DNA of 64,000 bases from an uncultured Candidatus Binatia bacterium (GTDB lineage: Bacteria; Desulfobacterota; Binatia; Bin18): assembly GCA_965214605.1 (NCBI GenBank), contig OZ243961.1:4064001-4128000 (forward strand), written 5' to 3'. A program made the translations under genes and the position numbers. Each line of letters opens with the position of its first letter. Positions within the stretch are counted from its first letter, which is position 1. Of the stretch, positions 25,121 through 51,195 are shown piece by piece. A model generated the notes under the pieces. It was not told where the DNA came from. It did no database searches and saw only the letters and a list, made by a program, of their open reading frames with translations.

Positions 25121-25122
25121 GA

Positions 25123-25211
25123 CCCCGTCCCCCGCACGGTTGGCTCGAGTCTCCGCCGGCACCATCAAGGCGCGCATGGCATCCCCCGTCCCCCGCACGG
25201 TTGGCTCGAGT
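25123..25211. repeat. Two-copy 28-bp direct repeat with 33-bp spacer
   Basis: ccccgtcccccgcacggttggctcgagt at 25123-25150 and 25184-25211. Confidence 0.85.
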
Positions 25212-25214
25212 TTC

Positions 25215-26168: not shown

Positions 26169-26189
26169 AGGAACGCAACCGCACGCCTG

Positions 26190-28229: not shown

Positions 28230-28466
28230 GCGGTTGGTGTCCTGCTTTGTGGGCCGATTCGGATCGACCGTTATTGAGGAAGACTAAAGAGGTCTCCGTC
28301 AGAGTGTCAAGAGGCGGGGCTGCGTGGACGGCCGGGAGGAGTTTGGAAGACGGTGGAATTTTCGTCCGGTGTCGGTGTCACTTGGTAAACGTCTTGGAAT
28401 CTGGTATCTAGCGACGATCGTGTTGAATCTCTGGATACATGGGTGAGCCGAACACAGCGGACAGCT

Positions 28467-29456: not shown

Positions 29457-29548
29457 GAGCAAGGTATGAACCGAGGGAAGGGACGGAGCTGTCCGATGCA
29501 GCTCGTTGTTGGGAATTTTGAGTCTGTTACTGGAGAGGGGGGGGTTGG

Positions 29549-30745: not shown

Positions 30746-30751
30746 ACCGCC

Positions 30752-31903
30752 TTGGGCCAAGCTTTGAGCGATCGGGACCAGCAAAGGGTGCGGGTGGTTC
30801 CAGTTCGGCGACGCTCAGCGCACCGCTCTTTTCTGAATCTTCCCCACCGTCTATATCGCCATGAGCCGGCCTGGGTTCCTCCCTTACTGCTTGATCTCAA
30901 GGAGCTGCTGAACCCTGACAAACACCCCTTCCATCAACACGCTGAGGTCGAGTATTTTCTCGCTCTGCGGGCCAAAGAAGCGGTCGGCCGTATCGCCGCT
31001 ATTGTGAACCACCAATACGTCTCGTTCCATAAGCGGCCAGTTGGCTTTTTTGGGTTCTTCGAGAGTGTGCACGATCCGGCCGTTGCTTCAGCTTTGCTGC
31101 GCGTTGCCGAGGGCTGGATCGCCGAACGGGGGATGACCCATATCCACGGTCCGATGAATTTCTCGACCAATGAGATGTGCGGGCTGCTCGTTGACGGCTT
31201 TGAACACCCACCGATGCTGATGATGCCCTACAATCCGGGGTACTACGCGGGGCTGATTGAAGCCGCTGGCTATCACAAGGCAAAAGACTTGCTCGCCTAT
31301 CTGATCGATGTCCGTACCGATGCCACTCCGCCCGCTCGTTTGGTGCGTGGGGTTGAGCGTTTACAAAGGGCGCAGCAGGTGACTATTCGTTCGCTTGATC
31401 CGCGACGTTTTGAGACCGAGATCGTCCACCTGTTTACCCTCTACCAACAGGCGTGGCAACATAACTGGGGCTTTGTCCCGGTCACCCAAGCCGAGCTCGA
31501 GCATTTTGTTAAACAGATGCGTCGGATTGCCGATCCGCGGCTGTGTTTAATTGCTGAGCTTGAGGGTCAGCCGGTTGGTTTTGCCCTGGCCCTGCCGGAT
31601 TATAATCAGGTCTTACGGCGGACGAATGGGCGTCTGTTACCGTTTGGCTGGCTGAAGCTGCTGTGGTATCGACGCTCGGTGAATGCGATTCGGATTTTGC
31701 TGCTAGGCCTCAAGCCGGGTGTCCGCCTCAGGGGTCTGGATGCCATGCTGTATCTCAAATTCTGGGAGGAAGCGCCCAAGAACGGTTATCCGTATGTGGA
31801 ATGCTCATGGATTCTTGAGGATAACTGGCCGATGATCCGTGGCCTGGAACGGATGGGGGCTGAGCGCTATAAGACGTATCGGGTCTACGAAAAGGTCTTG
31901 TGA
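30752..31903 (+). CDS. GNAT-fold N-acyltransferase, bacterial ceramide synthase (bCerS-like)
   Basis: WVPPL, GRIAA, GFFGFFE, MPYNP.YY, NWGFVP, ALPDYN, SWILEDN. Confidence 0.8.
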   Translation: MGQALSDRDQQRVRVVPVRRRSAHRSFLNLPHRLYRHEPAWVPPLLLDLKELLNPDKHPFHQHAEVEYFLALRAKEAVGRIAAIVNHQYVSFHKRPVGFFGFFESVHDPAVASALLRVAEGWIAERGMTHIHGPMNFSTNEMCGLLVDGFEHPPMLMMPYNPGYYAGLIEAAGYHKAKDLLAYLIDVRTDATPPARLVRGVERLQRAQQVTIRSLDPRRFETEIVHLFTLYQQAWQHNWGFVPVTQAELEHFVKQMRRIADPRLCLIAELEGQPVGFALALPDYNQVLRRTNGRLLPFGWLKLLWYRRSVNAIRILLLGLKPGVRLRGLDAMLYLKFWEEAPKNGYPYVECSWILEDNWPMIRGLERMGAERYKTYRVYEKVL

Positions 31904-34142: not shown

Positions 34143-34616
34143 ATGGAGGAATTGGATAGCTATCAGGCTCGTCGAGAAAATCTCAAACAGCGGTATTTGC
34201 CGCACGGGGAAGCCTCGGTCGGCACGGTCCCGACCGCTGGGGTCGATCATCTGGCCTTGATCTGTTCAGACCTAGAAGCCACGATTGAGTTTTACACCAC
34301 AGTGTTGGGCATGCGGCTGACCAAGATTATGGTAAACCGGGATGAGCCAAGCTCGACCCATATCTTCTTGGATATGGGTGGCGGTAATCAGCTAGCCTTT
34401 TTTGACTTTCCGAAGAAGGGGCCAGTCCGGACCACCCGGGGAGTGGGCAGCATGCATCATGTGGCGCTGAAGGCGAGTCCCGAACAGTACCGGAAGATTG
34501 TGGCCGCTTTAAAAGCCAAAGGGGCGGCCTATTCGCTGCATGGCTCCGAACAGTCGGGCTCTGTCTATGTCCGTGATCCCGATCAGATTCTGGTCGAGAT
34601 CACGACCGGATATTAA
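34143..34616 (+). CDS. VOC/glyoxalase family protein
   Basis: DHLAL, FYTTVLGM, HHVAL, SVYVRDPD..LVEI. Confidence 0.9.
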   Translation: MEELDSYQARRENLKQRYLPHGEASVGTVPTAGVDHLALICSDLEATIEFYTTVLGMRLTKIMVNRDEPSSTHIFLDMGGGNQLAFFDFPKKGPVRTTRGVGSMHHVALKASPEQYRKIVAALKAKGAAYSLHGSEQSGSVYVRDPDQILVEITTGY

Positions 34617-34627
34617 CCCATGCCCCA

Positions 34628-35302
34628 CTACGGCTGATTGGCGGCTAGGCTGTTAATAATGTCGACCGGCTCAAGCCGGTGGGTATAATCGGCATCAACG
34701 TAGGCCAATTGGATGACACCGTCCTGGCCTATGATATAGGTGGCTGGGATGGGCAACTCGTACGACGGATCGCCGTTGAAATCCGGCAGCTTGGCCCCGA
34801 TCTGATCGTACAGCGGACGTAGTTCGTCGACTAGGGCAAAAACTAGTCCGAAACTCCGGGCTGTCCGATTGCCGACATCGCTTAAAACCTCAAAGGGGAG
34901 GTCGTTCTTTTCGGCCATGGTCAAAGAGTTGTCCGGCGTCTGGGGAGAGACGGCGAGGACCGAGGCTCCGTAGGCTTGCATTGCGGCGAGGTGTTTCTTG
35001 TAAGCCTGCAACTGCAGGTTACAGTAAGGTCACCAATTGCCCCGGTAAAAAGCGAGGACGACTGGACCTTCACGCAGCAGACTGGATAGGCTGACCTGTT
35101 CGCCACGCACGTTTGGCAGACTGAAATCAGGTGCCGTGTCGCCAACCGTCAGGGCGCGGCTGGCAATGCCGGTTTTGACCAAATCTTCGGTAGTACGCTG
35201 GAGCGTACTCAGAATTTCGGCCGGGATTTTGGGCAGCATCTCTTTCTGAAACGCCTCGATGGCTTGCTTGAGCTCTTGGTTGATTCCAGTTGAGCTATCC
35301 AT
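34628..35302 (-). CDS. AhpC/TSA peroxiredoxin-like selenoprotein (Sec91, UxxC)
   Basis: Two track ORFs are in one frame, joined by TGA at 35030-35032 in FYRGNW-U-PYC (family motif FYRGxWCPYC); SECIS-like hairpin follows. Confidence 0.88.
34999..35023 (-). promoter_or_regulatory. Putative bacterial SECIS element
   Basis: TGTAA-CCTGC-AGTT-GCAGG-C-TTACA hairpin beginning 7 nt after the TGA; GTT at +18..+20. Confidence 0.7.
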
Positions 35303-35573
35303 GGTCTGGCCCTCCTCTGTCGTTTATGAATGAGATGGCGCGCTTATATATCCTGATGACCGCAAAAGCAAGCTGAGCGAGGACGGGCTGTAGGGGCGTT
35401 TCAGCCGCGCGCTGTGTCGAACCGGAAGACGGGCTGGGCCGGGGACTGAGGGAAGGTCTTTTGAAGGAGCGTCTCTTCTTTCCCAGATGCTCATCCTCGT
35501 TCACCTTGGTTGACCAAACGTACCAAGTAGGTATCAATACGGAGGCGGACAATACATACGGAGGAGAGAGGTT

Positions 35574-37298
35574 ATGCAGGACGTTTTGATGCGGTGGATT
35601 TGTCAAGCCAGTCTGGCGGTCGCGCTGCTGGTGGCGCTCAGTGTCGGTGCGGTGGCCGACCAACACGCCGAATCGGATGAGGGTCTGGCGTCGGTGACCA
35701 ATGAGCGACTGCTCAAAGGAACGCTGAATGGGAGCGACTGGCTGATGTACGGCGGCAATTATGAAAGCTGGCGGTTCAGCCCGCTGACCGATATTGACCG
35801 CCACAATGTCAAAAAGCTCCAGGCCGCCTGGGTTTTTCAGACAGGTATTCCGGCCCAGCTCCAAGCCTCTCCGGTAGTGGCGGACGGGGTGCTGTATCTG
35901 ACCGCGGCCTACAACAGTTTGTTTGCCATCGACGCAGTGAGCGGCGAGATGCTGTGGAGATATGATCATCCGCTCCCAAAGGACATGCGGATCTGCTGCG
36001 GTCCGGGCAACCGGGGTCCCGCCATTGCCGGTGATCTGCTCTACATGGGCACCCTAGATGCCCGGGTGCTGGCGCTCAATCGCAAGACTGGCAAAGTGGT
36101 ATGGAATATCGAGGTGGATAATTATCGCAATGGCTTTAGCGTGACCGCCGCTCCGCTGGTGGTCAAAGATAAGATCATTGTCGGCATCGCCGGTGGCGAG
36201 TATGGCGTTCGGGGCTATCTGGACGCCTATGATGCCAAGACAGGTGAGCTGGTATGGCGTCGTTACACCATTCCCAATATGGGCGAGGCGGGGAATGAGA
36301 CTTGGGAGGGCGATTCCTGGAAGCAGGGTGGTGGGCCGACCTGGGTGACCGGATCCTACGATCCAGAAGCCGATTTACTGTATTGGGCAACCGGTAACCC
36401 GGCACCGGACTGGAACGGAGACAACCGTGAGGGCGATAATCTGTACACCAACTGTGTGCTGGCTCTGGACCCGGATACCGGCCAGCTGAAGTGGTATTTC
36501 CAATTCACACCACACGACATCTGGGATTATGACGGCAATACCGGCATGTTTCTCCTTGATGTCCAACGCGGGACAGAAACCGTCAAGGCCCTAGCGCAGC
36601 CGAACCGGAATGGCTTTTTGTACGTTCTTGACCGCCACAGCGGGAAATTTTTGCACGGCGCACGCTACGTTGAGCAGCTGAACTGGGCCAAGGGGCTTAA
36701 TGAAAACGGCCGGCCACAGGTTGACCCCAAATACGTCCCAATGAAGGGTGGTAACCCTGAGCTGATCTGCCCCGGCAATGTTGGAGGCCAGAATGGCTCC
36801 TATGCTGCGGCCTACAGCCCCACAGCACACGCGATCTTTGTGCCGACGATTGAGAGCTGCGGTAAGATGGAAAAAGCTACCGCGATGTTTATCCAGGGCG
36901 TTCCGTTTTGGGGTGGCGGCCCTGGAGAGACGCAGGGCGATCTGGGCACCGCCTATGGCCATGTCTCGGCTATTGATCCGACGAGCGGCCAGGTCAAGTG
37001 GCGCTATAAAGACAAATATCCGATGGTTGGCGGCGCATTGGCGACGGCTGGCGGTCTAGTGTTTACTGGTAATCAACAGGGCTATGCTCTGGCCTTGGAC
37101 GACACGACCGGTGAGCTGCTGTGGAAGTTCCAAACTGGCTCGACGGTACGTGGTCAGCCAATCACGTATAAAATCGGCGGACGCCAATATGTGGCAATCC
37201 CAAGCGGGGCGGGCGGTCTGGTTGTCAGCATTGTTGGCGAGAATCCCAATATCAGCAAGGGGAGCGCGCTGTTGGTGTTTGCCCTGCCCGAGGGCTAG
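35574..37298 (+). CDS. PQQ-dependent alcohol dehydrogenase (type I), candidate lanthanide-binding
   Basis: Signal peptide, vicinal CC, GGEYG, TGNPAP, HDIWDYD, repeated W-docking motifs. Confidence 0.9.
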   Translation: MQDVLMRWICQASLAVALLVALSVGAVADQHAESDEGLASVTNERLLKGTLNGSDWLMYGGNYESWRFSPLTDIDRHNVKKLQAAWVFQTGIPAQLQASPVVADGVLYLTAAYNSLFAIDAVSGEMLWRYDHPLPKDMRICCGPGNRGPAIAGDLLYMGTLDARVLALNRKTGKVVWNIEVDNYRNGFSVTAAPLVVKDKIIVGIAGGEYGVRGYLDAYDAKTGELVWRRYTIPNMGEAGNETWEGDSWKQGGGPTWVTGSYDPEADLLYWATGNPAPDWNGDNREGDNLYTNCVLALDPDTGQLKWYFQFTPHDIWDYDGNTGMFLLDVQRGTETVKALAQPNRNGFLYVLDRHSGKFLHGARYVEQLNWAKGLNENGRPQVDPKYVPMKGGNPELICPGNVGGQNGSYAAAYSPTAHAIFVPTIESCGKMEKATAMFIQGVPFWGGGPGETQGDLGTAYGHVSAIDPTSGQVKWRYKDKYPMVGGALATAGGLVFTGNQQGYALALDDTTGELLWKFQTGSTVRGQPITYKIGGRQYVAIPSGAGGLVVSIVGENPNISKGSALLVFALPEG

Positions 37299-37356
37299 AA
37301 TCCAGGATATCCTCGAAGGATGGGGCGGGCCGCCTTCGGACGGCACCTGCTGCCGA

Positions 37357-38472
37357 TCAGCTCTGGGCGGCGCTCTGCCACGCCCGCCCCATTGCATCTG
37401 CCGCTAAAATCGCGTCTGCAACCATATCAGGGCTGACCTCAAACGGTTCGTTATGGATGGTCTCACCCTCGGCCGTGGCCCGGGCGGCAACCTGGGCGAG
37501 CTGCTCACGCGGCATGTCGGCCCCAAGACCGATCTCGTCCAGCGTGATGGGCAGACCGACCTGGCTGCAGAAGTGCAGAACGGGATCGATCACCGCGCGT
37601 GGCTTGCCTTCCATCACCAGCTGGGTCATCAGGCCGTAGGCCACCTTTTCTCCGTGATAGTACGGGTGGGTCTGAGCGGCTTCGGTCAGGCCGTTGTGTA
37701 CAGCGTGGGCGGCCGCCAGTCCAGACGATTCAAAGCCCAGACCGGACAACAGGGTGTTGGCCTCAACGAGACGTTCCAAGGCTGGATTGACGACATTATT
37801 TTCGACCGCCCGCAGAGCATCCGGTCCGTCTTCGACCAGGATGTTGTAACATAGTTCGGCCAGCTTCTCGGCGCTCCGGGTTGAGGCGCCACCGCGCATA
37901 TTTTGAATATGGCCTGCAACACAGGTCTTGGCTTCAAACCAGGTGGCCAGGGCATCCCCCATACCGGCGACTAGCAGGCGGGGTGGAGCCTGAGCCACCA
38001 CGTGCGTATCAACCAGCACCAGATCGGGATTCTTGCGGTAAAAACGGTATTCCTGAAAGACGCCCTGCTCGGTGTAGATAACCGACAGCGCACTACACGG
38101 TGCGTCGCTTGAGGCAATGGTCGGACAGTTGACCACCGGTAGGTTGAGGTCATCGGCCGCCGCCCGTGCGGCATCCAGCACTTTTCCACCGCCCGCGCCA
38201 ATCACCACCTGACTTTTGTTGTCCCGGGCGCTTTGCTTAATCCGTTCAATCTCGGGATATGAGCACTCGCCACCAAACTGATGTACAGCGTGACGAAGCC
38301 CGGCTTGGCTTAAATGCTGCTGCCAGACTTCGGACAGCAGCCGAATCGCGCTCCTTCCAGCAACAATCAGGGCCGGGCCCGCGAGCCCAATTCGTTGCAT
38401 TTCCGTGCCCAGTTGAGCGGTGGCGTTTTTTCCTTGGACGTAATGGCTTGGCGCCGAAAAGACCGAAAGCAT
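37357..38472 (-). CDS. gldA: Glycerol dehydrogenase (NAD/Zn)
   Basis: GGGKVLD, PTIASSDAPCSALSVIY, GMGDALATWFEA, GLAAAHAVHNG, HGEKVAYG. Confidence 0.9.
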   Translation of the reverse strand: MLSVFSAPSHYVQGKNATAQLGTEMQRIGLAGPALIVAGRSAIRLLSEVWQQHLSQAGLRHAVHQFGGECSYPEIERIKQSARDNKSQVVIGAGGGKVLDAARAAADDLNLPVVNCPTIASSDAPCSALSVIYTEQGVFQEYRFYRKNPDLVLVDTHVVAQAPPRLLVAGMGDALATWFEAKTCVAGHIQNMRGGASTRSAEKLAELCYNILVEDGPDALRAVENNVVNPALERLVEANTLLSGLGFESSGLAAAHAVHNGLTEAAQTHPYYHGEKVAYGLMTQLVMEGKPRAVIDPVLHFCSQVGLPITLDEIGLGADMPREQLAQVAARATAEGETIHNEPFEVSPDMVADAILAADAMGRAWQSAAQS

Positions 38473-38583
38473 AGCCGCCTCCTTGAGGTACGGGTCCTTA
38501 GTATACAGCCAGTCCCGGACAGTATAGACAAAGACTGGTCGGTGCGGCAAGCGAGGAAAAAAGGAAGACGGACTCGAATGCAT

Positions 38584-39438
38584 ATGAGGCAACACCTCTT
38601 ACAACTACAACGCGGCTCGGGGCGGTGGCTGTGGTGTATTGTCTGGCTCGTTGCCACCACGTGCCAGCCCGACCCTCCTGAACTCGGCAGCTATGCCTAT
38701 GGACGGCATGTCGTTGACTGTACGCCGGGAACCCGTCCGGGGCTGGCCGGCGTCCAGGATGACGAACGGTCGGCCAAGGGTATCAGCTATAATGTCCGCA
38801 CCCCGGCCAATTACGACCCACGCGTTGCCCATCCCCTGCTGATGGTCTACGCCCCGGCCGGGGTCAATCGGTTTGGCAGCGAGTCCTTGACCGATCTGAC
38901 CAAAGCGGCCACCCAGGCCGGTTTCATTATCGCCTATGCGAATCGTCGCCGTCTGTCGATCAAGGTCATTGAAGAGCTGGGGACGATTCCTGATCTGATT
39001 GCCGAAAAGTGGTGTGTTGATCCAAGGCGAATTTTTCTGACAGGCCACTCCGACGGAGGAACGGTTGCTGTTGCGCTGGCCGTCTTAGAACAAACGCAGC
39101 ATATCCCGACCGCAATCGCGCCAAGCGCGGCCGGATTCACAGCCCAGGATCTTGCCGCCTTTGCCTGCCCGGCTCCGCTGTCAGTGATGGTGATGCACGG
39201 CGCTGAGGATCGACATTTCCCCGGCTATGGCCAACAGATTGCAGACTGGTGGGCGGTCTGTAACCGCTGTGGGAGACGAGCGAGCCCACGCCGGGCTGAT
39301 GGGTGTCGCAGCTATCCTAACTGCGCCGGTGGTGTGAGGACGGTGTACTGTGAGGGAACAGGCTCCCACCTGGAGTGGCCCGGCTTCAATCCACAGCTCC
39401 TAGCCTTCTTCACTGGACTCAGCCAATATCGCCCATAA
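38584..39438 (+). CDS. PHB-depolymerase/esterase family exported alpha/beta hydrolase
   Basis: GHSDG nucleophile elbow, MHGAED, GSHLEWP; N-terminal leader. Confidence 0.8.
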   Translation: MRQHLLQLQRGSGRWLWCIVWLVATTCQPDPPELGSYAYGRHVVDCTPGTRPGLAGVQDDERSAKGISYNVRTPANYDPRVAHPLLMVYAPAGVNRFGSESLTDLTKAATQAGFIIAYANRRRLSIKVIEELGTIPDLIAEKWCVDPRRIFLTGHSDGGTVAVALAVLEQTQHIPTAIAPSAAGFTAQDLAAFACPAPLSVMVMHGAEDRHFPGYGQQIADWWAVCNRCGRRASPRRADGCRSYPNCAGGVRTVYCEGTGSHLEWPGFNPQLLAFFTGLSQYRP

Positions 39439-39583
39439 CCCGCTAAAATATAAGGATATTTTTTATCTCTGGGCAACGCTTGACATCCAGCCTGGTTTTA
39501 TTCCATATAAGAGGAACTCCGCACGGGTGGGGCCCAACATGGGTGAACTGAGAGCCGACAGTCTCAGTGGCGGATGCAATTAG

Positions 39584-40168
39584 ATGAACTGTACGAGAAA
39601 GACTGGATGGGTCAGGATGGCGTTGGCAACGCTTGGCGCGGCCCTACTGCTGGTTGGAACGCCAGCTGAGGCGCATCGAGACCGTGGACCAAACGACGCG
39701 TGTCGGCGAGAGATTGGAGCTTCGCTTCTGCACATAACGCTGTATCAGACCCAGTTCGATCCGGTTGCCGAGTACTGCGAAGAAGTCCCACGGGCGGGCA
39801 AGGCACTCATGGTTGTCGATGTGACCCCGGGCCAATTACGGGCAGTCCCCCTTGGGCTCGAAATTATCGCCACCAACGAATCGGGTCAGTCGCAGGCCGT
39901 GGTGTCGGTAGCGCCTCGGATTTATGAGCGCGGCGTGATGAATACAGAGGTGGTCTTTGTCAAGGACAAGGAGTATGTTGCCCAGGTGATGGTCGAGCTG
40001 GAAGAGGGCAAAGCGCCACAACTCCTGGCCTTTCCCATTCAGGTCGCGTCGTGGTATAAGGCAATGATGGTGCCGGGGCTGATTGTGGGTGGGGTGCTCA
40101 TCTTTGTGCTCATTTCAGTCTTCCGCTATACAATTGTCTCCCGGCAGCACAGCGAGGCGTTGGCCTAA
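39584..40168 (+). CDS. PmoD/AmoD-like copper-binding membrane-anchored protein
   Basis: Signal AEA|H, D.C......LHITLYQ......YCEEVP..G...VVD pattern, C-terminal TM helix; first gene of the CuMMO operon. Confidence 0.75.
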   Translation: MNCTRKTGWVRMALATLGAALLLVGTPAEAHRDRGPNDACRREIGASLLHITLYQTQFDPVAEYCEEVPRAGKALMVVDVTPGQLRAVPLGLEIIATNESGQSQAVVSVAPRIYERGVMNTEVVFVKDKEYVAQVMVELEEGKAPQLLAFPIQVASWYKAMMVPGLIVGGVLIFVLISVFRYTIVSRQHSEALA

Positions 40169-40216
40169 AAGAGGCATACATTAGGAGAGTGCGTCAACAA
40201 GCACAGGAGGAATACG

Positions 40217-41056
40217 ATGGCTCAGGCACAAGCGATGTCGGTATCAAGGGGATCCGGTGATGGGGCGACGATGAATCCGACCGACTGGTCGGTCGGTTGG
40301 AAACCGCTGTTCTGGGGGTGTGGGTTGGTCATGGGGGCCAACATTTTTCTGTGGTTCTGGAACTACTGGTATATGTTTACGGCCGGGCTGAACTCTGCTA
40401 GCTGGGAGTTCACGCTGTACTACCGTACGCTGTTCTGGGCGGAGTTGATCATTATCGGCGCATTCGCCGGAATCTGGCTGGGTTGGTTGATCCGGACCGG
40501 TCGAGAAATAGAGGGCCAGCCGGTTGCGCGGTCCGAACAGGTCCGGCGGATTGCTATTTTGTGGAGCCTGGTCGGCGTGACCAGCCTGTCGGTTTATCTG
40601 GAGGCCAGCTTCTGGCCAAATTGGGACGGTTCATGGCATCAAACCATGGTACGCGACACCGCGCTCACCCCAACCCACATTCCGATGTTTTATTTCTTTT
40701 TTCCACTGACCGTTGTGTTGGCCGTGGGGACCTATCTGTATGGGCGCTACCGCATTCCGAGTCTGTATGGCCGAGACAAAGGGTTTCCATGGTCGTTTGC
40801 CCTGCTGATTGCGGCGGCAGCGCTGGAATGTATGGCGGTCGCGGCCAACGAATGGGGCCATAGTCTGTGGATCTCCGAGGAGATTTTCTCGGTGCCTTTT
40901 CACTGGCCGTTTGTGATCTACGGCTGGCTGGCCAGCGGGATGTTCGCCGTCTGGGGAGAAACCATCGTCCACCTCTTCGAGATTGAGAAAGCTGAAGAAG
41001 AGGATGAGACTGACTCCCCGTCCCAGCCGGTAGAGCAACCCGTGTCTGCCGACTAA
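40217..41056 (+). CDS. pmoC: Copper membrane monooxygenase subunit C (divergent PmoC/AmoC)
   Basis: DGSWHQTMVRDTALTPTH and NEWGH...EEIF..PFHW motifs; AGGAGG RBS. Confidence 0.92.
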   Translation: MAQAQAMSVSRGSGDGATMNPTDWSVGWKPLFWGCGLVMGANIFLWFWNYWYMFTAGLNSASWEFTLYYRTLFWAELIIIGAFAGIWLGWLIRTGREIEGQPVARSEQVRRIAILWSLVGVTSLSVYLEASFWPNWDGSWHQTMVRDTALTPTHIPMFYFFFPLTVVLAVGTYLYGRYRIPSLYGRDKGFPWSFALLIAAAALECMAVAANEWGHSLWISEEIFSVPFHWPFVIYGWLASGMFAVWGETIVHLFEIEKAEEEDETDSPSQPVEQPVSAD

Positions 41057-41076
41057 TCGCCCCGTTCACCGTAGTT

Positions 41077-41106
41077 CGGTGTGGGATCGGCTGAACTCCC
41101 ACACCG
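41077..41106 (+). promoter_or_regulatory. Stem-loop between pmoC and pmoA
   Basis: cggtgtggga-N10-tcccacaccg perfect 10-bp stem followed by cttt. Confidence 0.6.
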
Positions 41107-41142
41107 CTTTATCTCAAGACCTCGCACAGAGAGGCAGCAGGC

Positions 41143-41946
41143 ATGGCAGACGCACCAGCTACAGTGACAGACCTGACGGCCGAGGCCGAACGCCAAAAAC
41201 GGCTCGAGCTTAAGGCCCTGTTGGAAAAAAAGTATAAATGGATCGATTGGAAGTGGGACCTGATCTTCTGGGTCACGGCCATCTTTGTCGTTGCTGGAGC
41301 GGCAGATATTACCAAACAGCTGTTTGCCGGTGACTGGGACTTCTGGACCGACTGGAAAGATCCCCAGTGGTGGCCGGTGGTCACCGCTTTTGCCACGATC
41401 ATCATTCCGTCTGCCCTACAGTATATCCAGTGGGTGGCGTGGCGCTTCCCCACCGGGGCAACCTACACTGCGTGTTGCATGTTTTTGGCAGCCTGGGTGG
41501 GGCGTTACTTCCAGTGGAATGTGGCCGAAACCTATCCTATGAACTTTGTGTGGCCGATCTCTATCGTCGGGGCAGGTATCCTGATGGACTGGACTCTGAT
41601 GAAAACCAAGAGTTTCATCCTCACCTCCCTCATTGGTGCACATGTCTGGGCCATTGCGGTGTGGGCCTATAATTATATTCCCCTGTCACCCTTCCTCCAA
41701 CCCGCCCACTTCATGGATCATGTCGTGACGGTCTCCGATGTCCAGGGTATTGCCTATATTCGATCGCAGACGCCGGAATATTTGCGTCTAATTGAGCGTG
41801 GTGCGCTGCGCAGCTTCCTGGGCGAAACCCAGTACGTGTCTCTGGTATTTGGCGGCACGGTCGCCTTTGCTGGGTATTGGATCGGCCAGTTCATCGGTCG
41901 CTACCTAGCGGTCTGGCCGATTAGGCGCTACTTAAAAACGCTGTGA
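41143..41946 (+). CDS. pmoA: Copper membrane monooxygenase subunit A (divergent PmoA/AmoA)
   Basis: AGDWDFWTDWKD, PTGAT, YPMNFVWP, YIRSQTPEYLRLIERGALRSF. Confidence 0.93.
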   Translation: MADAPATVTDLTAEAERQKRLELKALLEKKYKWIDWKWDLIFWVTAIFVVAGAADITKQLFAGDWDFWTDWKDPQWWPVVTAFATIIIPSALQYIQWVAWRFPTGATYTACCMFLAAWVGRYFQWNVAETYPMNFVWPISIVGAGILMDWTLMKTKSFILTSLIGAHVWAIAVWAYNYIPLSPFLQPAHFMDHVVTVSDVQGIAYIRSQTPEYLRLIERGALRSFLGETQYVSLVFGGTVAFAGYWIGQFIGRYLAVWPIRRYLKTL

Positions 41947-41953
41947 GGTCGCT

Positions 41954-42235
41954 ATGCTAAGCACAACGCAATGGAGCAAAGTCGCAGGTGCTAGCCTGGC
42001 CGCCCTGCTCGCAACGCCGTCACTCGGACACGCCCATGGCATAGGACTGGACGAAATGGCCCCTCCTGTAGTAACGGCAATCCTGCTTGGTCTGGCGTGT
42101 TACTGGCTGATGGTGCTGTGGCCCGCCGGGAGACACACTAAGCTCCCGTCGTTTGAGACGCCGGTCAGCGAAAAGATTCGGATCAAACAGAAGCCGCGCC
42201 TGCGGGTGGTGGAGAGGAGACTGGTCGATGACTAA
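41954..42235 (+). CDS. Small membrane protein inserted between pmoA and pmoB
   Basis: GAGG RBS, signal peptide ending GHA|HG, one TM helix, basic tail; overlaps the pmoB start. Confidence 0.6.
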   Translation: MLSTTQWSKVAGASLAALLATPSLGHAHGIGLDEMAPPVVTAILLGLACYWLMVLWPAGRHTKLPSFETPVSEKIRIKQKPRLRVVERRLVDD

Positions 42236-43487
42236 GTGGGCGACCGGGCAGGTCCTGCTTGGCCTGATGCTTTTCGGCTGGACTGCCGTGATCGGTGTTC
42301 CTCAATGTTTTGCCCATGGCGAGGCCGCAGATGAGCCTTTCCTGAAAAACCTAACAACCGCGTTTTTCGACGTGTCGGTGTCTCCGACCGAAATTCAGGT
42401 CGGCGAGCCGGTCACTATCACCGGTAAGGTCCAGATCCTGGAGACCTGGCCGCACACGCTCTACCCCCCGGAAATCGCCTCTATCATGCCGGTGGTCCCC
42501 GGACCGGTGTTTCTGCTCAAGGAGCGAACAGTCAACGGGGAATCCTCAATCGGTTCGTTTTTTGTTGAAAAGGGTGGAATTTACGAGTTCCGCATGGTGC
42601 TCATCGGCAAAGAACCCGGCGAATGGCATGTACATCCTGGGATTGCCATCCATGGAACCGGAACGCTCATCGGCCCGGCTGAATGGGTCAACGTAGCGCC
42701 TAGCACAACCCCACTCGAATTTCCGGTGACCCTGCTGAGCGGTGAGACCATTGAACTGAGTAGTTACGGCGGAAGCTTCGTTGTCTGGTGGTCATTTCTC
42801 GGCTTTGGACTGGGTCTTGTCTGGATGTTGTATTGGACCCTGACCAAGAGAACCGTCACAAACCTAGCCGTGACCCTCCAGATTCCCCCTAACGATGACG
42901 CGCCTGATCTGGGTCTCATTACCCCACGTGACCATATGTGGATGAACGTGATCGCCGGGGCTGCGCTCATCATGCTGGTAGCCGGCTGGACCTATGCAAC
43001 GACGAGCTATCCGGTCAGATGGCCGCAACAGACCGACTGGTTCACGCCAGAATTGATCTCACCGGGACCGAAAATGGCCGAGGTGCGGGCTACCGGGGCG
43101 ACGTTTGATGAGGGGACCGAGACGCTAGAGATGGACGTCCGGGTCACGAACGTTGACGACAGCCCGATCACAGTGAAGAAATACACGATGGCAATGGCCA
43201 GCTTTGTCAACGGTGGCGAACAAGAACAGGCCGCCGCGGGACCGCGCGATTTTGTCGGGACCCTCAACGTCGCCCCCAACGTTCCGATCGAACCGGGCCA
43301 GACTCAAGAGCTGAGTCTCAGCATTTCGAGCGCCTTGTTCGGCACCGAACGCCTGATTCCGCTCAGCGCCCCGCAGCAATATATCGCCGGTGTCTTCCAG
43401 TTTGAGAACTCAGACGGCGAGCAGGAGTTGGTCACGGTCCGCTCAGGCCTCATCCCAACCCGCTTCACCCCCCAGTATCTGCCCTAG
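42228..43487 (+). CDS. pmoB: Copper membrane monooxygenase subunit B (divergent PmoB/AmoB)
   Basis: Signal FA|HGEAADEPFL, WHVHP....GTGTLIGPAEW, two TM helices, C-terminal cupredoxin-like domain; GAGGAG RBS before ATG 42228. Confidence 0.92.
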   Translation: MTKWATGQVLLGLMLFGWTAVIGVPQCFAHGEAADEPFLKNLTTAFFDVSVSPTEIQVGEPVTITGKVQILETWPHTLYPPEIASIMPVVPGPVFLLKERTVNGESSIGSFFVEKGGIYEFRMVLIGKEPGEWHVHPGIAIHGTGTLIGPAEWVNVAPSTTPLEFPVTLLSGETIELSSYGGSFVVWWSFLGFGLGLVWMLYWTLTKRTVTNLAVTLQIPPNDDAPDLGLITPRDHMWMNVIAGAALIMLVAGWTYATTSYPVRWPQQTDWFTPELISPGPKMAEVRATGATFDEGTETLEMDVRVTNVDDSPITVKKYTMAMASFVNGGEQEQAAAGPRDFVGTLNVAPNVPIEPGQTQELSLSISSALFGTERLIPLSAPQQYIAGVFQFENSDGEQELVTVRSGLIPTRFTPQYLP

Positions 43488-43516
43488 GCCCACCGGTCGG
43501 GGAGGTCTGCATATCG

Positions 43517-44107
43517 GTGTGGATCGGCATCTTCCTGTCACTTATCTGGCCGACTGTGCTCCTCCTCGCACCGCTCCCACTGTGGGCGCACGGCGGGGTT
43601 GGGATTGAGCAAGACACGTGTGTCGAGCGAGCTGGTCCATCGTTGATTCATTTTGTTGCTTATCAACCCGAGCTGAGTCCAAGCCAAGAGTTCTGTACCC
43701 GCTTGCCCCAGGTCGGGAGCACGATCCTTGTTTTTGATTTGATTGACGAGGTCGTCCGCAAACGTCCGGCAAGTCTGCGGGTAGTAGAAACCGGTACTAC
43801 GGCTGAGCCCCGTACCCTGCTCCATATTCCGGCTCAAACATATCTGAATGGGGTGCTCAACGCCGAGCTCACATTTGACGAGCCGGGCCACTACGCGGCA
43901 GTGGTGACGCTGGAGAATCCGTATCAGCAGATCACATTTCCGTTTCGCGTTGGACGGTGGTCGGTTCAGCTCCTGGTGGTGCTCAGCGGCCTCGTTTGTG
44001 GCGCGCTTGGCGGCTATTTCTTCTTCCGGGGCAAAAAGAAGCCGCCGCAGCTTAGGCGGTTGAAAAGCTACCCCCCCTTTTCCTACTCGTCATCTCCCCA
44101 TACATAG
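43517..44107 (+). CDS. Second PmoD/AmoD-like protein
   Basis: WA|HGGVGIEQDTC.....IHFVAYQP.....EFC..LP..G...VFDL; C-terminal TM helix. Confidence 0.78.
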   Translation: MWIGIFLSLIWPTVLLLAPLPLWAHGGVGIEQDTCVERAGPSLIHFVAYQPELSPSQEFCTRLPQVGSTILVFDLIDEVVRKRPASLRVVETGTTAEPRTLLHIPAQTYLNGVLNAELTFDEPGHYAAVVTLENPYQQITFPFRVGRWSVQLLVVLSGLVCGALGGYFFFRGKKKPPQLRRLKSYPPFSYSSSPHT

Positions 44108-44108
44108 A

Positions 44109-45821
44109 GTGCTTATGTCTCCGTCTCGTCTTCTGAAAGTGTCGATGCTGGTCCTGGTCCTGCTTGGCGCTGCGGTGTTTTTGCTGCCGCGTTCTTGGCT
44201 GCCGCAGACTGTCCAAGATTTGCTATATGCATCTTTCGGAGAATCCCCGTATCGACGTCCGCCGGACACTACAGACATAGAACTCGGCCTGGCTGAGCCG
44301 TTCTGCCCGGATCTTCACCCAGACTGGCGCCAACAGCAGGTCGTGGCCGGTATCACGATTGAGGAATCACTGGTGTGTGAGCCGGACAATCCGGCTGAGG
44401 TGGCCGCCTTTGTCAGAGGCACCAACAATGTACCGCTGGCAGTCCTCATGCAAACCCGGCTGACCCCAACGACGGTGGTCAAAGACGAGGACCGGGATGG
44501 AGACGGTGACCCTGACGTGATTCATATCCGTCTTGAAGTTGCCGAACTCAACGGTCGTTCGCCGGATATTCCGGATCCCTTTCCGCGCTATGCCATCGCT
44601 CCTGGAGTGCAGCCTGGGCTATGGGTCTTTGCTCCTAAAACACGCGGTATGGCGACCGAAAACTTTGACACCGACGTGGCCAACCCCAGCCTGCGTGCTC
44701 CGGCTCCAGTCATTCGTGTGGAACAGGGCGACCGCCTCCGGCTGACATTGGAAAACACCCATTATTTGCCCCATACAATCCATCTACACGGAGTCGATCA
44801 CCCCTTTGTCGACAGCAATGGCGAGGGCAATGATGGCGTCCCTATCGCCAGTGAACAACCCGTGCTTCCGGGCCAAAGTCGGACCTATGATCTGACTCCG
44901 CGCCAGACCGGCACTATGTTTTATCACTGCCATGTACAACCTAACGTCCATATTTTGATGGGCTTACAGGGGATGTTTGTGGTTGAGGAAAATCTGCCCA
45001 ACAATTGGGTACAGACGCTCAACCCAGGCGCCGGACGGGTGCGTTTTCCTTCGCAAGGTGTCCGCCGGACGTACGACCGCGAGTATGATCTGCACTACCA
45101 AGACCTGGATCACACTCTGCACGAGGTGATTCAAACGGCCAATGACCCCCGGCTGGTGGCCGAGGCCACCAGCCGCCGCTACGATATTACCGATCAGACG
45201 CCCGATTATTTTGTCCTTAACGGCCGTTCGTTTCCGTATACCATTCGGGAGTCCCTGGTGGTCGTCAAAACTAACCAGGACGTGAAACTGCGCGTGCTGA
45301 ACGGAGGGGCAGAGGGGATTGCTCTGCACACCCACGGCCACAAAATCAGGATTACCCATTACGACGGTGTGGAGCATAATCCGGCCGCCCAGATTACCCG
45401 CGATGTAGTCTGGCTAGGTCCCGCCCAACGGCTTGATTTACACCTGCGGACGGTCAACGATGGGCTCCACAACTACGGACCGGGCGTGTGGTTGTTGCAC
45501 GACCACAAAGAGAAAGGCGTGACCACAAACGGCATCAATCCGGGCGGTAATATCAGCGCGATTGTGTACGAATCTTTCTTGGCCGAAGCCGGCTGGCCGA
45601 AGACACAGGGCATGGACTGGACGCCATTTTTCAGCCAGGCCTACTATCAGAAGAAAGTCCCGGTCTGGAGCACCCTCGACGACTCGAGTCTGCTCGGTCA
45701 AGCCGCCAGCCGGACCCCGGGTTGGGGCCGTGCAGCGCTTCTTGGGCTGCTAAGCGGGCTCCTGCTCGGCGGGCTGGCGGCTCGGCTGCGCTCTGTGTTT
45801 CAACGTCCACCAAGGGGCTAG
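44109..45821 (+). CDS. Membrane-anchored multicopper oxidase
   Basis: HTIHLHG, YHCH....H..MG, HTHGH, LHDH copper motifs; N- and C-terminal hydrophobic anchors. Confidence 0.88.
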   Translation: MLMSPSRLLKVSMLVLVLLGAAVFLLPRSWLPQTVQDLLYASFGESPYRRPPDTTDIELGLAEPFCPDLHPDWRQQQVVAGITIEESLVCEPDNPAEVAAFVRGTNNVPLAVLMQTRLTPTTVVKDEDRDGDGDPDVIHIRLEVAELNGRSPDIPDPFPRYAIAPGVQPGLWVFAPKTRGMATENFDTDVANPSLRAPAPVIRVEQGDRLRLTLENTHYLPHTIHLHGVDHPFVDSNGEGNDGVPIASEQPVLPGQSRTYDLTPRQTGTMFYHCHVQPNVHILMGLQGMFVVEENLPNNWVQTLNPGAGRVRFPSQGVRRTYDREYDLHYQDLDHTLHEVIQTANDPRLVAEATSRRYDITDQTPDYFVLNGRSFPYTIRESLVVVKTNQDVKLRVLNGGAEGIALHTHGHKIRITHYDGVEHNPAAQITRDVVWLGPAQRLDLHLRTVNDGLHNYGPGVWLLHDHKEKGVTTNGINPGGNISAIVYESFLAEAGWPKTQGMDWTPFFSQAYYQKKVPVWSTLDDSSLLGQAASRTPGWGRAALLGLLSGLLLGGLAARLRSVFQRPPRG

Positions 45822-45824
45822 CCT

Positions 45825-46688
45825 GTGGTGATCTTTTTCCTGGCTGTGTTTGCTGTCTGCGTATTTCCTGCGCTGGGTTTGAGCCAAGAAACCGCGCCAC
45901 GCGCGCCTCAGGTCCACACCGATCACCGAATGGATGCTGAGCCGCATGCCGATCACCGAATGGATGCTGAGCCGCATGCCGATCACCGAATGGATGCTGA
46001 GCCGCATGCCGATCACCGAATGGATGCTGAGCCGCATGCCGATCACCGAATGGATGCTGAGCCGCATGCCGATCACCAAGTCCATGAGCATCACGCTATG
46101 CGGCTGGACGCCTCAGGTATGGTTATGAATGAAAACACCGACGAACTGCCGCGAGGCTGTCCACGCATCGCTGGCGAACAACATATCACCGTCCGCGCCG
46201 GTAAGGAATTTGCGCGGGATTTTTCAGGCACGATGTTCACCTATGACCAGCGAGAGTGGGCGGTCGAACCGTGTACACAGCTCACCGTCAGCCTGATCAA
46301 TACCGATGAGGTTCGCCACCAATGGATGTTGCATGGTCTGCCCCGCTATCTGTATGACCAGGGTATGTTCACCCTGGAGGTCGCGGGAAAAGGTCAGAAA
46401 ACCGCCAGCTTTATCGTGCCGCCGGGAAGCAAGACGTATCTGGTCCATTGTGACGTGCCACACCATATGGAAAAAGGGATGAAAGCCCAGTTAAAGGTCG
46501 GTGGTGGGGATGGCGATTTGCCGAGTATCCCGGGGATTACCGGCCCCCGCCTGGAAGATCCCTATCTGTTTGAGTGGGGGTGGACAGGAATAGGGTTGAC
46601 CCTTGTTGGCGGGCTGCTTGGTCTAGTCCTAGCCAGCAGAGGACCGGGTCTGCTGCGACAGGTGCGGGTGAAACAAATACGCAAGTGA
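45825..46688 (+). CDS. Cupredoxin-domain protein with His/Met-rich N-terminal repeat
   Basis: Signal peptide, (DHRMDAEPHA)x5, RHQWM, HCDVPHHMEKGM type-1 Cu motif, C-terminal TM helix. Confidence 0.85.
   Translation: MVIFFLAVFAVCVFPALGLSQETAPRAPQVHTDHRMDAEPHADHRMDAEPHADHRMDAEPHADHRMDAEPHADHRMDAEPHADHQVHEHHAMRLDASGMVMNENTDELPRGCPRIAGEQHITVRAGKEFARDFSGTMFTYDQREWAVEPCTQLTVSLINTDEVRHQWMLHGLPRYLYDQGMFTLEVAGKGQKTASFIVPPGSKTYLVHCDVPHHMEKGMKAQLKVGGGDGDLPSIPGITGPRLEDPYLFEWGWTGIGLTLVGGLLGLVLASRGPGLLRQVRVKQIRK
45919..46077. repeat. Perfect 30-bp tandem repeat, about 5.3 copies, in frame
   Basis: gatcaccgaatggatgctgagccgcatgcc x5 from 45921. Confidence 0.97.
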
Positions 46689-46707: not shown

Positions 46708-47568
46708 ATGAAAGTAGGAATCTTTGAGTTCGCCATCGACCGGTCCGTCGATCCAGCCCTTGTGGCCAAGCGGACCGAGGAGCTGGGCTTCGCCTCGTAC
46801 TGGGTCCCGGAGCATCCGATTATTCCGATACAGACCACCTCACCCTATCCGGGCGCTGAGGACGGGATTATTCCGGACGAGTATGGGCGCATTCTCGACC
46901 CATTCGTGGCCCTGGCCAGGGCTTCGGCAGTCACTCGCACAATTGAGTTGGGGACCGGCATTTGCCTTATTCCTGAGCGGAATCCGCTGCTACTAGCCAA
47001 AGAAGTAGCGACCCTGGATAAGCTGTCGGGCGGCCGTTTTATTCTGGGGATTGGCGCCGGCTGGCTCAGAGAAGAAACCGAGATCATGGGCGGGGATTTT
47101 GCTCATCGCTGGAGCCAGACCAGGGACGGAGTCTTGGCTATGAAGGAGCTGTGGACCCAAGATGAAGCCGAGTATCACGGGAAGTTCTACGACTTTCCGG
47201 CCGTGCGATCTTTCCCCAAGCCGGTCCGGAAACCGCATCCACCGGTGTATATGGGTGGCTCGTCGAAGTATGTGTTCAAGCGTGTGGTGGAGTGGGGCGA
47301 CGGCTGGATGCCGGTCCTGTCGCCGCTCGAAGACATTAAGGCTGGTCGCCAACGCCTGAATGAGATGGCCGAACAGGTGGGCCGTGATCCCAAGTCTATC
47401 CAGGTGCTGGCCTTTGGTTTTCCCGGCAAATATCGGACCCGCCAGGAACTGGCCGAACTCCAGGACGCAGGCGTCGATCATGTCACCATCTGGCTGCAGG
47501 AGTGTGACAACGGTGAGGCCGCCGCGCTGGCCGAGTTGGACGGCCTGGCCAAAGAGGCCCTGGCGTAG
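46708..47568 (+). CDS. LLM-class F420-dependent oxidoreductase
   Basis: WVPEH, LDPFVAL, LGTGI, LDKLSGGRFILGIGAGW. Confidence 0.92.
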   Translation: MKVGIFEFAIDRSVDPALVAKRTEELGFASYWVPEHPIIPIQTTSPYPGAEDGIIPDEYGRILDPFVALARASAVTRTIELGTGICLIPERNPLLLAKEVATLDKLSGGRFILGIGAGWLREETEIMGGDFAHRWSQTRDGVLAMKELWTQDEAEYHGKFYDFPAVRSFPKPVRKPHPPVYMGGSSKYVFKRVVEWGDGWMPVLSPLEDIKAGRQRLNEMAEQVGRDPKSIQVLAFGFPGKYRTRQELAELQDAGVDHVTIWLQECDNGEAAALAELDGLAKEALA

Positions 47569-50031: not shown

Positions 50032-51195
50032 GTGAAAATCGCCTACTTTGACGCTTTCTCCGGGATCAGTGGAGACATGACGGTTGGCGCCTTTCTGCAG
50101 CTCGGTGTATCGCTTGACGCCCTACGGCATGAGCTGAATACGCTTGACCTGACCGGCTATCGGCTCCGTCAGACCGTCCGCCAGCGTAGCGGTATTCAGG
50201 CCACGAAATTCGAGGTTGAGGTCCACCAGGTGCAGGGAGAACGCAGTGCTCGATCCATTACTGATATGCTCCGGACGGGTGGTCTCGTCCCCCAAGTCCG
50301 GGATACAGCGTTGCGTATTTTTGACGTCTTAGCCCGAGCCGAGAGCCACATCCACGGCGTTCCACCTGAAGAGGTGCATTTTCATGAAGTCGGGGCGGTC
50401 GACTCGATTGTCGACATTGTCGGAATCGCATTTGGTCTCCACACCCTCGGTATTGAACAGGTGTATGTCTCACCCCTCCCAATGGGTAGCGGGGTGGTGG
50501 CGTCACGGCATGGCCTCTTGCCCGTTCCTGGGCCAGCCACGCTTGAGCTCCTCAAGGGTTTCCCGGTGTGTTTAGCCGACGGCCAGAGTGAGCTGGTAAC
50601 GCCGACCGGGGCGGCAATCCTTGCTGCGGTCGCCCAGCCCGGAACCGTTCCTGCCGTACAGATTGAGGCGGTCGGGTATGGAGCTGGAGAGAGGGAACTG
50701 AGTGATCGTCCGAATCTACTCCGGGTGATCCTTGGCCACACCCACCAGCCGCCTCGGACCGATCAGCTGCTAGTCTTGGAAACAAATATCGACGATCTTA
50801 ATCCCGAGTTCTATGAGCATATCATGGAGCGCGTGCTGAGCGCGGGGGCGCGCGATGTCTTTTTATGTCCCATTCATATGAAGAAGAATCGCCCCGGGAT
50901 TCTGCTGTGGGTGTTGTGTGAGGCCGCAGACCGGGAACGCCTGAGCGGGCTGCTCTTTGCCGAGACCTCAACCTTGGGGATTCGCGTCTATCCGGTTGAG
51001 CGGTTGGCGCTGCGACGTGAACACACCAGCCTTGAGACCCCCTATGGGCGGATAGGCCTCAAGCTGGCACATCGACCGGATGGGCGCATCCACATCGCTC
51101 CCGAGTATGAAGACTGCAAACGTTGTGCGCGGGAGCACGACGTGCCGCTCAGCGTGGTGTATGAGGCAGCCCTGCACTTGGCACGGGAGGGATAG
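50032..51195 (+). CDS. larC: Nickel pincer cofactor biosynthesis protein LarC
   Basis: SGISGDM, HFHEVGAVDSIVD, ELVTPTGAA, ETNIDD, MKKNRPG, PEYEDC. Confidence 0.95.
   Translation: MKIAYFDAFSGISGDMTVGAFLQLGVSLDALRHELNTLDLTGYRLRQTVRQRSGIQATKFEVEVHQVQGERSARSITDMLRTGGLVPQVRDTALRIFDVLARAESHIHGVPPEEVHFHEVGAVDSIVDIVGIAFGLHTLGIEQVYVSPLPMGSGVVASRHGLLPVPGPATLELLKGFPVCLADGQSELVTPTGAAILAAVAQPGTVPAVQIEAVGYGAGERELSDRPNLLRVILGHTHQPPRTDQLLVLETNIDDLNPEFYEHIMERVLSAGARDVFLCPIHMKKNRPGILLWVLCEAADRERLSGLLFAETSTLGIRVYPVERLALRREHTSLETPYGRIGLKLAHRPDGRIHIAPEYEDCKRCAREHDVPLSVVYEAALHLAREG

Follow-up and report, generated by a model that had tools for sequence, protein, structure and literature searches.

A Copper Membrane Monooxygenase Locus in Candidatus Binatia Whose Gene Partners Suggest C3 Oxidation through Acetol

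Gene Content of the Locus

The 64,000-nucleotide stretch of DNA analyzed here (the window; positions 4,064,001 to 4,128,000 of contig OZ243961.1, from an uncultured Candidatus Binatia bacterium) carries the core copper-containing membrane monooxygenase (CuMMO) of its family, encoded in the order C-A-x-B with two PmoD proteins, a multicopper oxidase, a copper protein, and an esterase. The genes form a plus-strand run that begins with the esterase, a polyhydroxybutyrate-depolymerase-like serine hydrolase with a hydrophobic N-terminus (38578–39438; NF050058 48.5 bits, below cut-off), and continues with a PmoD-like protein (39584–40168), PmoC (40217–41056), PmoA (41143–41946), a small conserved open reading frame, ORF x (41954–42235), matched in 27 of 27 loci of close relatives, PmoB (42228–43487), a second PmoD homolog (43517–44107), the multicopper oxidase (44109–45821; PF07732/PF07731), an exported His-rich protein with a cupredoxin-like C-terminal Cys/His/Met motif (45825–46688; no match in a Pfam scan), and an F420-dependent LLM oxidoreductase. 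The second PmoD is homologous to the solved PmoD 6CPD (E 8e-14), and the first is linked to that structure via the second (28% identity, E 1e-17).

Upstream lie genes for an exported pyrroloquinoline quinone (PQQ)-dependent alcohol dehydrogenase (PQQ-ADH; 35574–37298, plus strand) and a GldA-type NAD-dependent diol/ketol dehydrogenase (37357–38472, minus strand). An earlier, sequence-only reading had set these two, a VOC-family protein, and the esterase directly upstream of the copper operon. All are present, and every gene that it named has an intact reading frame; the upstream genes are nevertheless not one operon, because gldA lies on the minus strand, pointing away from the esterase-CuMMO run and toward the PQQ-ADH gene. 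A peroxiredoxin-like gene intervenes between the VOC and PQQ-ADH genes.

All three subunits score above cut-off for their families (PF04896, PF02461, and PF04744), and the joint occurrence of A, B, and C subunit genes identifies a member of the CuMMO superfamily. The PmoB His brace (H30/H134/H136) is conserved in an alignment to 3RGB, as are the PmoC ligands D137/H141/H154 and N211/H215/H229 in alignments to 3CHX and 3RFR; we take these to be the sites named CuB, CuC, and CuD. Within PmoC residues 133–137, an Asn stands two residues before D137 in nearly all members of the clade described below, where other CuMMOs examined have Glu; it is a candidate substrate-pocket signature. Against NCBIfam models for particulate methane monooxygenase (pMMO) and ammonia monooxygenase (AMO) (TIGR03078-80 and NF041557/640/641), PmoA scores far below the cut-offs (162 versus 318 and 193 versus 290 bits).

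Phylogenetic Position and Distribution

The window PmoA falls in a clade of 21 rows with 100/100 support in a 53-row tree, among whose rows AmoA, gamma-PmoA, SAR324, and Nocardioides references do not figure. The clade spans Binatia, Actinomycetota, Bacillota, and Dormibacterota on the hydrocarbon monooxygenase (HMO) side; its members include Caldinitratiruptor (72% identical to the window PmoA), Lentzea (66%), Carbonactinospora (64%), Dormibacterota, and Egibacteraceae. A 100/99 split sets it on the same side as HmoA of Mycolicibacterium and Rhodococcus (41–45% PmoA identity) and, on the opposite side, alphaproteobacterial PmoA, PxmA, Binatia sequences to which we assigned the label TUSC-like, and a Methylacidiphilum copy taken as PmoA3. 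Tree placement and the low pMMO/AMO scores bear out the expectation of the sequence-only reading that this CuMMO is neither a methane nor an ammonia enzyme. The CuMMOs of Mycolicibacterium chubuense (HmoCAB) and of Rhodococcus plasmids share this broad side of the tree; unlike the window enzyme, they lie in a separate clade with 100/100 support, have Mdo or acyl-CoA ligase genes as neighbors, and gave no pmoD match.

The kinship with verrucomicrobial PmoCAB3 that had been raised earlier is not shown. The PmoA3 label is inferred from a sequence cluster containing strain Yel, for which pmoCAB3 is described as the only complete set (PMC8630023), and the comparison is by PmoA only; on that basis identity is 32%, and the free tree separates the two. 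A forced joint clade is not rejected (approximately unbiased test, p-AU 0.066), so a separate origin of the clade from PmoA3 is likely rather than demonstrated.

PmoB matches were obtained in 27 genome loci, 23 of them titled Ca. Binatia or Binatota. The lineage is not unstudied, as had been supposed: Murphy et al. (2021) described CuMMOs with CAxB order and pmoD in the Bin18 and Binatales orders, mostly of an Actinobacteria/SAR324 clade, and associated Bin18 with sponges (PMC8262859). The window CuMMO has the features of that Binatota type, with a Binatia host, CAxB order, pmoD, a His brace, a PmoA on the actinobacterial HMO side, and XoxF in the genome. For this group those authors propose short alkanes or methane, the acetone route described there being AcmA/AcmB; GMC, GldA, and acetol are not discussed in the passages and supplement searched (PMC8262859). 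Binatota are also among the HMO carriers in a recent CuMMO phylogeny (PMC12533140).

The GC content of the locus (0.56–0.60) is like that of the remainder of the window, and its third-position GC (GC3) of 0.59–0.70 compares with 0.64–0.65 in three control genes outside the cluster. Counting CuMMOs of all types, 51 of 54 family genomes and 88 of 401 genomes of the class have a PmoA-family gene; the CuMMO is thus a core family trait, and the notion of a catabolic genomic island is rejected on both composition and distribution. Many family genomes hold two CuMMO types.

Dehydrogenase Partners of the Monooxygenase

The PQQ-ADH (TIGR03075 594 bits, cut-off 480) finds its best structural match in 6ZCV, which we take to be PedH. 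It has the Cys-Cys, Glu, Asn, and catalytic Asp residues and an extra Asp two residues on, a motif that presumably marks lanthanide enzymes; it is predicted to be a lanthanide PQQ-ADH of the PedH/ExaF-like type, not XoxF. PedH-type enzymes take primary and secondary alcohols and diols (PMC8427195). GldA passes PRK09423 (493.8 versus 336 bits) without reaching the narrower models NF047954 and NF053832, and its structural matches are glycerol dehydrogenases. Dihydroxyacetone kinase (DhaK) was not found in the genome by a search that matched 4 of 14 controls, which argues against a glycerol role for GldA.

Within about 10 kb of the CuMMO in the 27 close-relative loci, mostly from one genus, GldA occurs in 19, PQQ-ADH in 20, the esterase in 22, and the VOC gene in three. 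The proposed co-conservation of the upstream genes is therefore upheld for GldA and PQQ-ADH, largely within a single genus, and fails for the VOC gene. PQQ-ADH is upstream of the CuMMO in the genus of the window and downstream of it in the sister genus; the copies are orthologous (100 SH-aLRT), and the gene remained linked to the CuMMO across the rearrangement. On all contigs inspected for gldA, bar one that is short, the gene adjoins a CuMMO gene. The next-closest Binatia GldAs (60–71% identity, L208–L211) have no CuMMO gene in the stretches fetched, and GldA matches on plasmids are all below 60% identity.

GldA and a GMC oxidoreductase exclude each other. Among 401 genomes of the class, 39 have GldA (at least 80% identity), 44 have GMC, and none has both, the count leaving aside 21 genomes with weaker GldA matches (40–71%). 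All 39 GldA genomes are PmoA-positive and belong to the window's family, and 40 of the 44 GMC genomes are PmoA-positive; one or the other enzyme is present in 79 of 88 PmoA-positive genomes versus 4 of 313 PmoA-negative ones. The window's family (55 genomes) divides into 39 with GldA, 10 with GMC, and six with neither, all six 65–87% complete, with co-occurrence in 0 of 55; the window genome has no GMC orthologue in this census. A zinc alcohol dehydrogenase (Zn-ADH) follows the same division: searches located it in 8 of 11 genomes with GMC and in 0 of 15 with GldA. The GldA/GMC state changes at least seven times on a 34-row CAB tree. The CuMMO-linked GldAs are one clade, broadly congruent with the CAB tree, a pattern that fits one gain of GldA followed by reciprocal loss. 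These data suggest that GldA stands in for the GMC (+Zn-ADH) module found in relatives, with GldA and PQQ-ADH taking the place of the periplasmic GMC.

In more distant members of the CuMMO clade, the GMC module prevails. At 40 same-clade loci from other genera and families, the GMC large subunit (at least 70% identity, within about 10 kb) is present in 34, GldA in three, and a cassette of amidohydrolase, DUF59, and Zn-ADH genes in two, one short contig having none of these; all three are missing from 16 loci of other CuMMO types (0/16). The large subunit is nearly always accompanied by a small subunit exported by the twin-arginine (Tat) system and often by Zn-ADH, cytochrome c, and SCO genes; many GMC loci are without an NAD-linked dehydrogenase. 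The GMC of the Binatia clade is 73–78% identical to GMCs adjoining diiron clusters of Bradyrhizobium, Methylocella tundrae, and Azospirillum (three of three plasmid loci opened, out of 119 matches), and a Zn-ADH lies inside such a cluster in one of two further loci opened. From gene order, we take these diiron clusters to be group-5 propane/acetone monooxygenases. Metagenomes contributed 80 loci of the clade, mostly short; 15 of these also have the amidohydrolase and DUF59 genes of the diiron clusters. The acetone-induced Mim cluster includes the amidohydrolase and Adh1 (PMC7176365).

GMCs studied in other bacteria are linked to acetol. Deletion of the Methylocella silvestris GMC (Msil_1641) causes acetol to accumulate and abolishes growth on acetone and 2-propanol (PMC7364539), and GmcAB of the Methylacidiphilum pmoCAB3 cluster was purified as an acetol dehydrogenase that is inactive on 1,2-propanediol and 2-propanol (10.64898/2026.06.11.731722). 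With E. coli GldA, reduction of acetol yields 1,2-propanediol and that of methylglyoxal yields lactaldehyde (PMC5697356, PMC3245452), and acetol is thus a substrate common to GldA and GMC.

The surroundings of the window's relatives resemble two known arrangements. Like the diiron Prm/Mim clusters and the Methylocella Msil_1641 region, they hold GMC large and small subunits, cytochrome c, Zn-ADH, amidohydrolase, and DUF59 genes; the oxygenase, by contrast, is a copper membrane enzyme, and in the window GldA and PQQ-ADH replace the cassette. Like the Methylacidiphilum pmoCAB3 cluster, the window has a divergent CuMMO with pmoD; a VOC-fold gene is nearby in some genomes, and the two-subunit Tat-exported GMC is found both in that cluster and in the window's relatives (PMC8630023, PMC12235487, 10.64898/2026.06.11.731722). 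The window differs from pmoCAB3 in having GldA and PQQ-ADH instead of GmcAB, no clustered lactate dehydrogenase, phosphoenolpyruvate (PEP) synthase, or canonical GloA, and a PmoA that is not sister to PmoA3 in the free tree.

The esterase is better read as a CuMMO accessory gene. Together with the multicopper oxidase, copper protein, and PmoD, it accompanies a distant type of CuMMO at 3 of 16 loci (L112, L113, and L120), and its named homologs come from Methylococcales and Nitrospira. Its proposed role as a supplier of 2-propanol from esters is disfavored, since the gene flanks unrelated CuMMOs too. The VOC protein (34143–34616, plus strand; PF00903, 54 bits) was earlier cast as a glyoxalase of the pathway, a role that is doubtful: it fails the GloA test (TIGR00068 24.9 versus 120 bits), a gloA elsewhere in the genome scores 161.6, and the gene is rarely linked to the CuMMO in close relatives. 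Of 54 family genomes, 44 have the VOC gene, often a long way from the CuMMO, and in two other genera it directly follows pmoB; its neighbors away from the CuMMO differ between genera and give no pathway clue. For the esterase and the VOC protein alike, Atlas searches yielded generic families only.

A Putative Route through Acetol

The gene partners suggest that the substrate of this clade lies in C3 chemistry through acetol, not in methane or ammonia, and acetol is the best reading of the route, mainly on evidence from relatives. From these partners we infer both the substrate and the downstream steps. The CuMMO would be a copper counterpart of the propane/acetone diiron monooxygenases, using O2 and copper to hydroxylate acetone, or another short ketone like it, to acetol. 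The C3 intermediates would be processed in relatives by a periplasmic GMC of the acetol dehydrogenase type and Zn-ADH; in the window, the periplasmic lanthanide PQQ-ADH and the cytoplasmic GldA would take them over by one of two routes. Acetol may be oxidized by PQQ-ADH to methylglyoxal, which GldA, or housekeeping GloA/GloB, would convert to lactaldehyde or lactate. Alternatively, GldA would reduce acetol with NADH to 1,2-propanediol, which PQQ-ADH would oxidize via lactaldehyde to lactate; passage of acetol via 1,2-propanediol has been mentioned as a possible route (PMC7176365). The GldA/lanthanide-ADH route may thus bypass methylglyoxal. Lactate could yield pyruvate via unlinked GlcDEF-like or FMN hydroxy-acid dehydrogenases. 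The genome holds, away from the locus, genes for GloA, GloB, a GlcDEF-like set, an FMN hydroxy-acid dehydrogenase, and LarA-family and PPDK-family proteins; LUD-domain lactate genes were found in none of five genomes by a search that matched 9 of 14 controls. The chance that the CuMMO makes acetol from acetone and that PQQ-ADH and GldA carry it to lactate appears to us evenly balanced. The earlier proposal of an acetone-acetol-lactate route keeps its acetol core and loses the esterase as a source of substrate.

We also propose, more tentatively and with the balance somewhat against it, that acetone oxidation by a copper monooxygenase evolved a second time, independently, in the multi-phylum clade, whose enzyme took its place within a diiron-type accessory cassette, the acetol step being swapped repeatedly between GMC and GldA/lanthanide-ADH in this family. 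Both the enzyme lineage and, from Verrucomicrobia, an acetone CuMMO have been described before; the new elements are the replacement by GldA/PQQ-ADH, its exclusivity with respect to Zn-ADH and GMC, and the presence of a diiron-type cassette beside other members of the clade. A literature search, with limited coverage of subscription journals, found nothing linking this CuMMO clade to acetol or GldA. The substrate of so common a lineage matters, as such genes get tallied as potential for methane or alkane oxidation. If the acetone route is correct, copper-enzyme acetone hydroxylation extends beyond hot-spring Verrucomicrobia; on the more tentative proposal for the whole clade, these bacteria would be an overlooked acetone sink, and many "pmoA/HMO-like" survey matches would be ketone oxidizers.

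Several points weigh against the putative acetone assignment. PmoA is distant from the presumed PmoA3 and falls on the alkane-HMO side. The Binatia GMC carries the proteobacterial three-Cys motif and lacks the Cu-4Fe-4S motif of the acetol dehydrogenase (AceDH) of SolV, as does the Methylocella enzyme; its alignment used a Methylocella tundrae homolog in place of the characterized Msil_1641 or GmcA. The primary-alcohol oxidation performed by GMC is a reaction that GldA cannot carry out, and E. coli GldA has a Km for acetol in the mM range (PMC3245452). The PQQ-ADH subfamily is present in 21 of 21 family genomes searched, whatever their GldA/GMC state. Lactate dehydrogenase and PEP synthase are absent from the cluster, unlike in pmoCAB3, and the lactate dehydrogenase candidates elsewhere mostly fall under NCBIfam equivalog cut-offs. 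Only four independent GldA/GMC pairs stand on well-supported branches of the CAB tree, all opposite (sign test p=0.125), and its rows were picked for carrying a GldA or GMC state. The cassette also serves propane monooxygenases and for that reason does not separate acetone from propane.

Propane is accordingly the main rival. A short-alkane (propane/butane) monooxygenase would act subterminally, taking propane via 2-propanol to acetone, possibly with activity on acetone as well, as in group-5 diiron enzymes, while the dehydrogenases handle alcohols and ketols. We consider this unlikely but worth serious weight: the 100/99 split that joins PmoA to HmoA and the accessory cassette shared with clusters of propane-monooxygenase order speak for it, as do the preference of Murphy et al. 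for short hydrocarbons in this Binatota group (PMC8262859) and the oxidation of secondary alcohols by PedH-type enzymes (PMC8427195). Against it, identity to HmoA-type enzymes is 41–45%, the neighbors at plasmid HMO loci are Mdo, aldehyde dehydrogenase, or acyl-CoA ligase genes and not GMC/GldA, acetone carboxylase was not found (a search in which controls were also silent), and an acetol-processing partner would still require a source of acetol. Vicinal diols are the usual substrates of GldA, and a diol route can be drawn on that basis, in which the CuMMO epoxidizes propene or ethene, with the VOC protein as a possible hydrolase, or adds a hydroxyl group to 2-propanol; GldA would convert the resulting 1,2-propanediol or ethylene glycol to a ketol and PQQ-ADH would oxidize it further. 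GldA substitutes for Zn-ADH as cleanly as for GMC, the weak VOC matches include epoxide-opening Fos enzymes (far under cut-offs), and the VOC position after pmoB in two genera would fit; this route is nonetheless improbable, given that in most genomes the VOC gene has no linkage to the CuMMO, many GMC loci miss an NAD-linked dehydrogenase, diol dehydratase gave no match (controls also silent), and SolV AceDH (GmcAB) is described as inactive on 1,2-propanediol (10.64898/2026.06.11.731722).

That the upstream genes are passengers, GldA serving glycerol/dihydroxyacetone housekeeping and its linkage being inherited synteny, we hold to be more improbable still. Two sister genera supply most GldA loci, the GldA tree broadly follows the CAB tree, and independent GldA/GMC pairs are few; yet GldA at 80% or more identity is confined to PmoA-positive genomes (39/39) and, one short contig aside, adjoins a CuMMO gene on the contigs inspected, the genome is without DhaK, and no family genome combines GldA with GMC. 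Least credible is a methane or ammonia monooxygenase. In its favor, the genome has, elsewhere, an XoxF-like enzyme adjoining an xoxJ-like gene; the earlier observation that methanol dehydrogenase genes are absent holds within the window and, in view of this XoxF-like gene, carries no weight. The esterase/oxidase/PmoD module is likewise common to methanotroph- and nitrifier-type organisms. The pMMO/AMO scores and the 100/99 separation from alpha-PmoA, PxmA, and TUSC-like sequences (in a tree with no AmoA or gamma-PmoA row) stand against it, as does a genome search for hao without match, the same search giving 0 of 14 matches in controls.

Other Features of the Window and Genome

The peroxiredoxin-like gene (34628–35302, minus strand; AhpC/TSA type, PF00578 on both halves) has an in-frame UGA in a UxxC motif. 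The TGA is conserved in 7 of 7 loci of its own genus, and a tRNA-Sec gene is present at G000:C1:3624480; the product is probably a selenoprotein, and a split pseudogene is rejected on the conserved UGA. The F420-dependent LLM oxidoreductase gene (46708–47568, plus strand; TIGR03619) starts 19 bp past the copper protein gene and is co-conserved with tight linkage at 80–97% identity in two genera; the genome has more than 100 LLM-like matches. The N-terminus of the copper protein carries a six-fold His/Asp/Met-rich decapeptide repeat that is shorter in relatives. A promoter scan found four sites versus 6.7 expected. Near the cluster lies larC (50032–51195), and a LarA-family hydroxy-acid isomerase is encoded at G000:C1:3430086–3431660.

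A second CuMMO operon (G000:C1:~374.6–376.7 kb) is of a different type, with about 40% PmoA identity; a deletion of about 0.9 kb takes out most of its pmoA and the start of pmoB, and the operon is intact in several relatives. Among the CuMMO records, P0129 (514 amino acids) is an apparent PmoC-PmoA fusion, seen in this single record. A soluble diiron monooxygenase operon (G000:C1:477.8–481.3 kb) resembles what we take to be toluene monooxygenases. The region G000:C1:3827–3845 kb, as read from its sequence, groups PQQ biosynthesis-like genes with an alternative-complex-III-like operon and a pair of PQQ-ADH paralogues related to the window enzyme. A lipid-modifying cluster at 23927–31903 of the window encodes a CDP-alcohol phosphatidyltransferase, a diacylglycerol kinase-like protein, a desaturase, an epimerase, a pyridoxal phosphate-dependent aminotransferase, and a GNAT protein, and presumably resembles sphingolipid-type synthesis.

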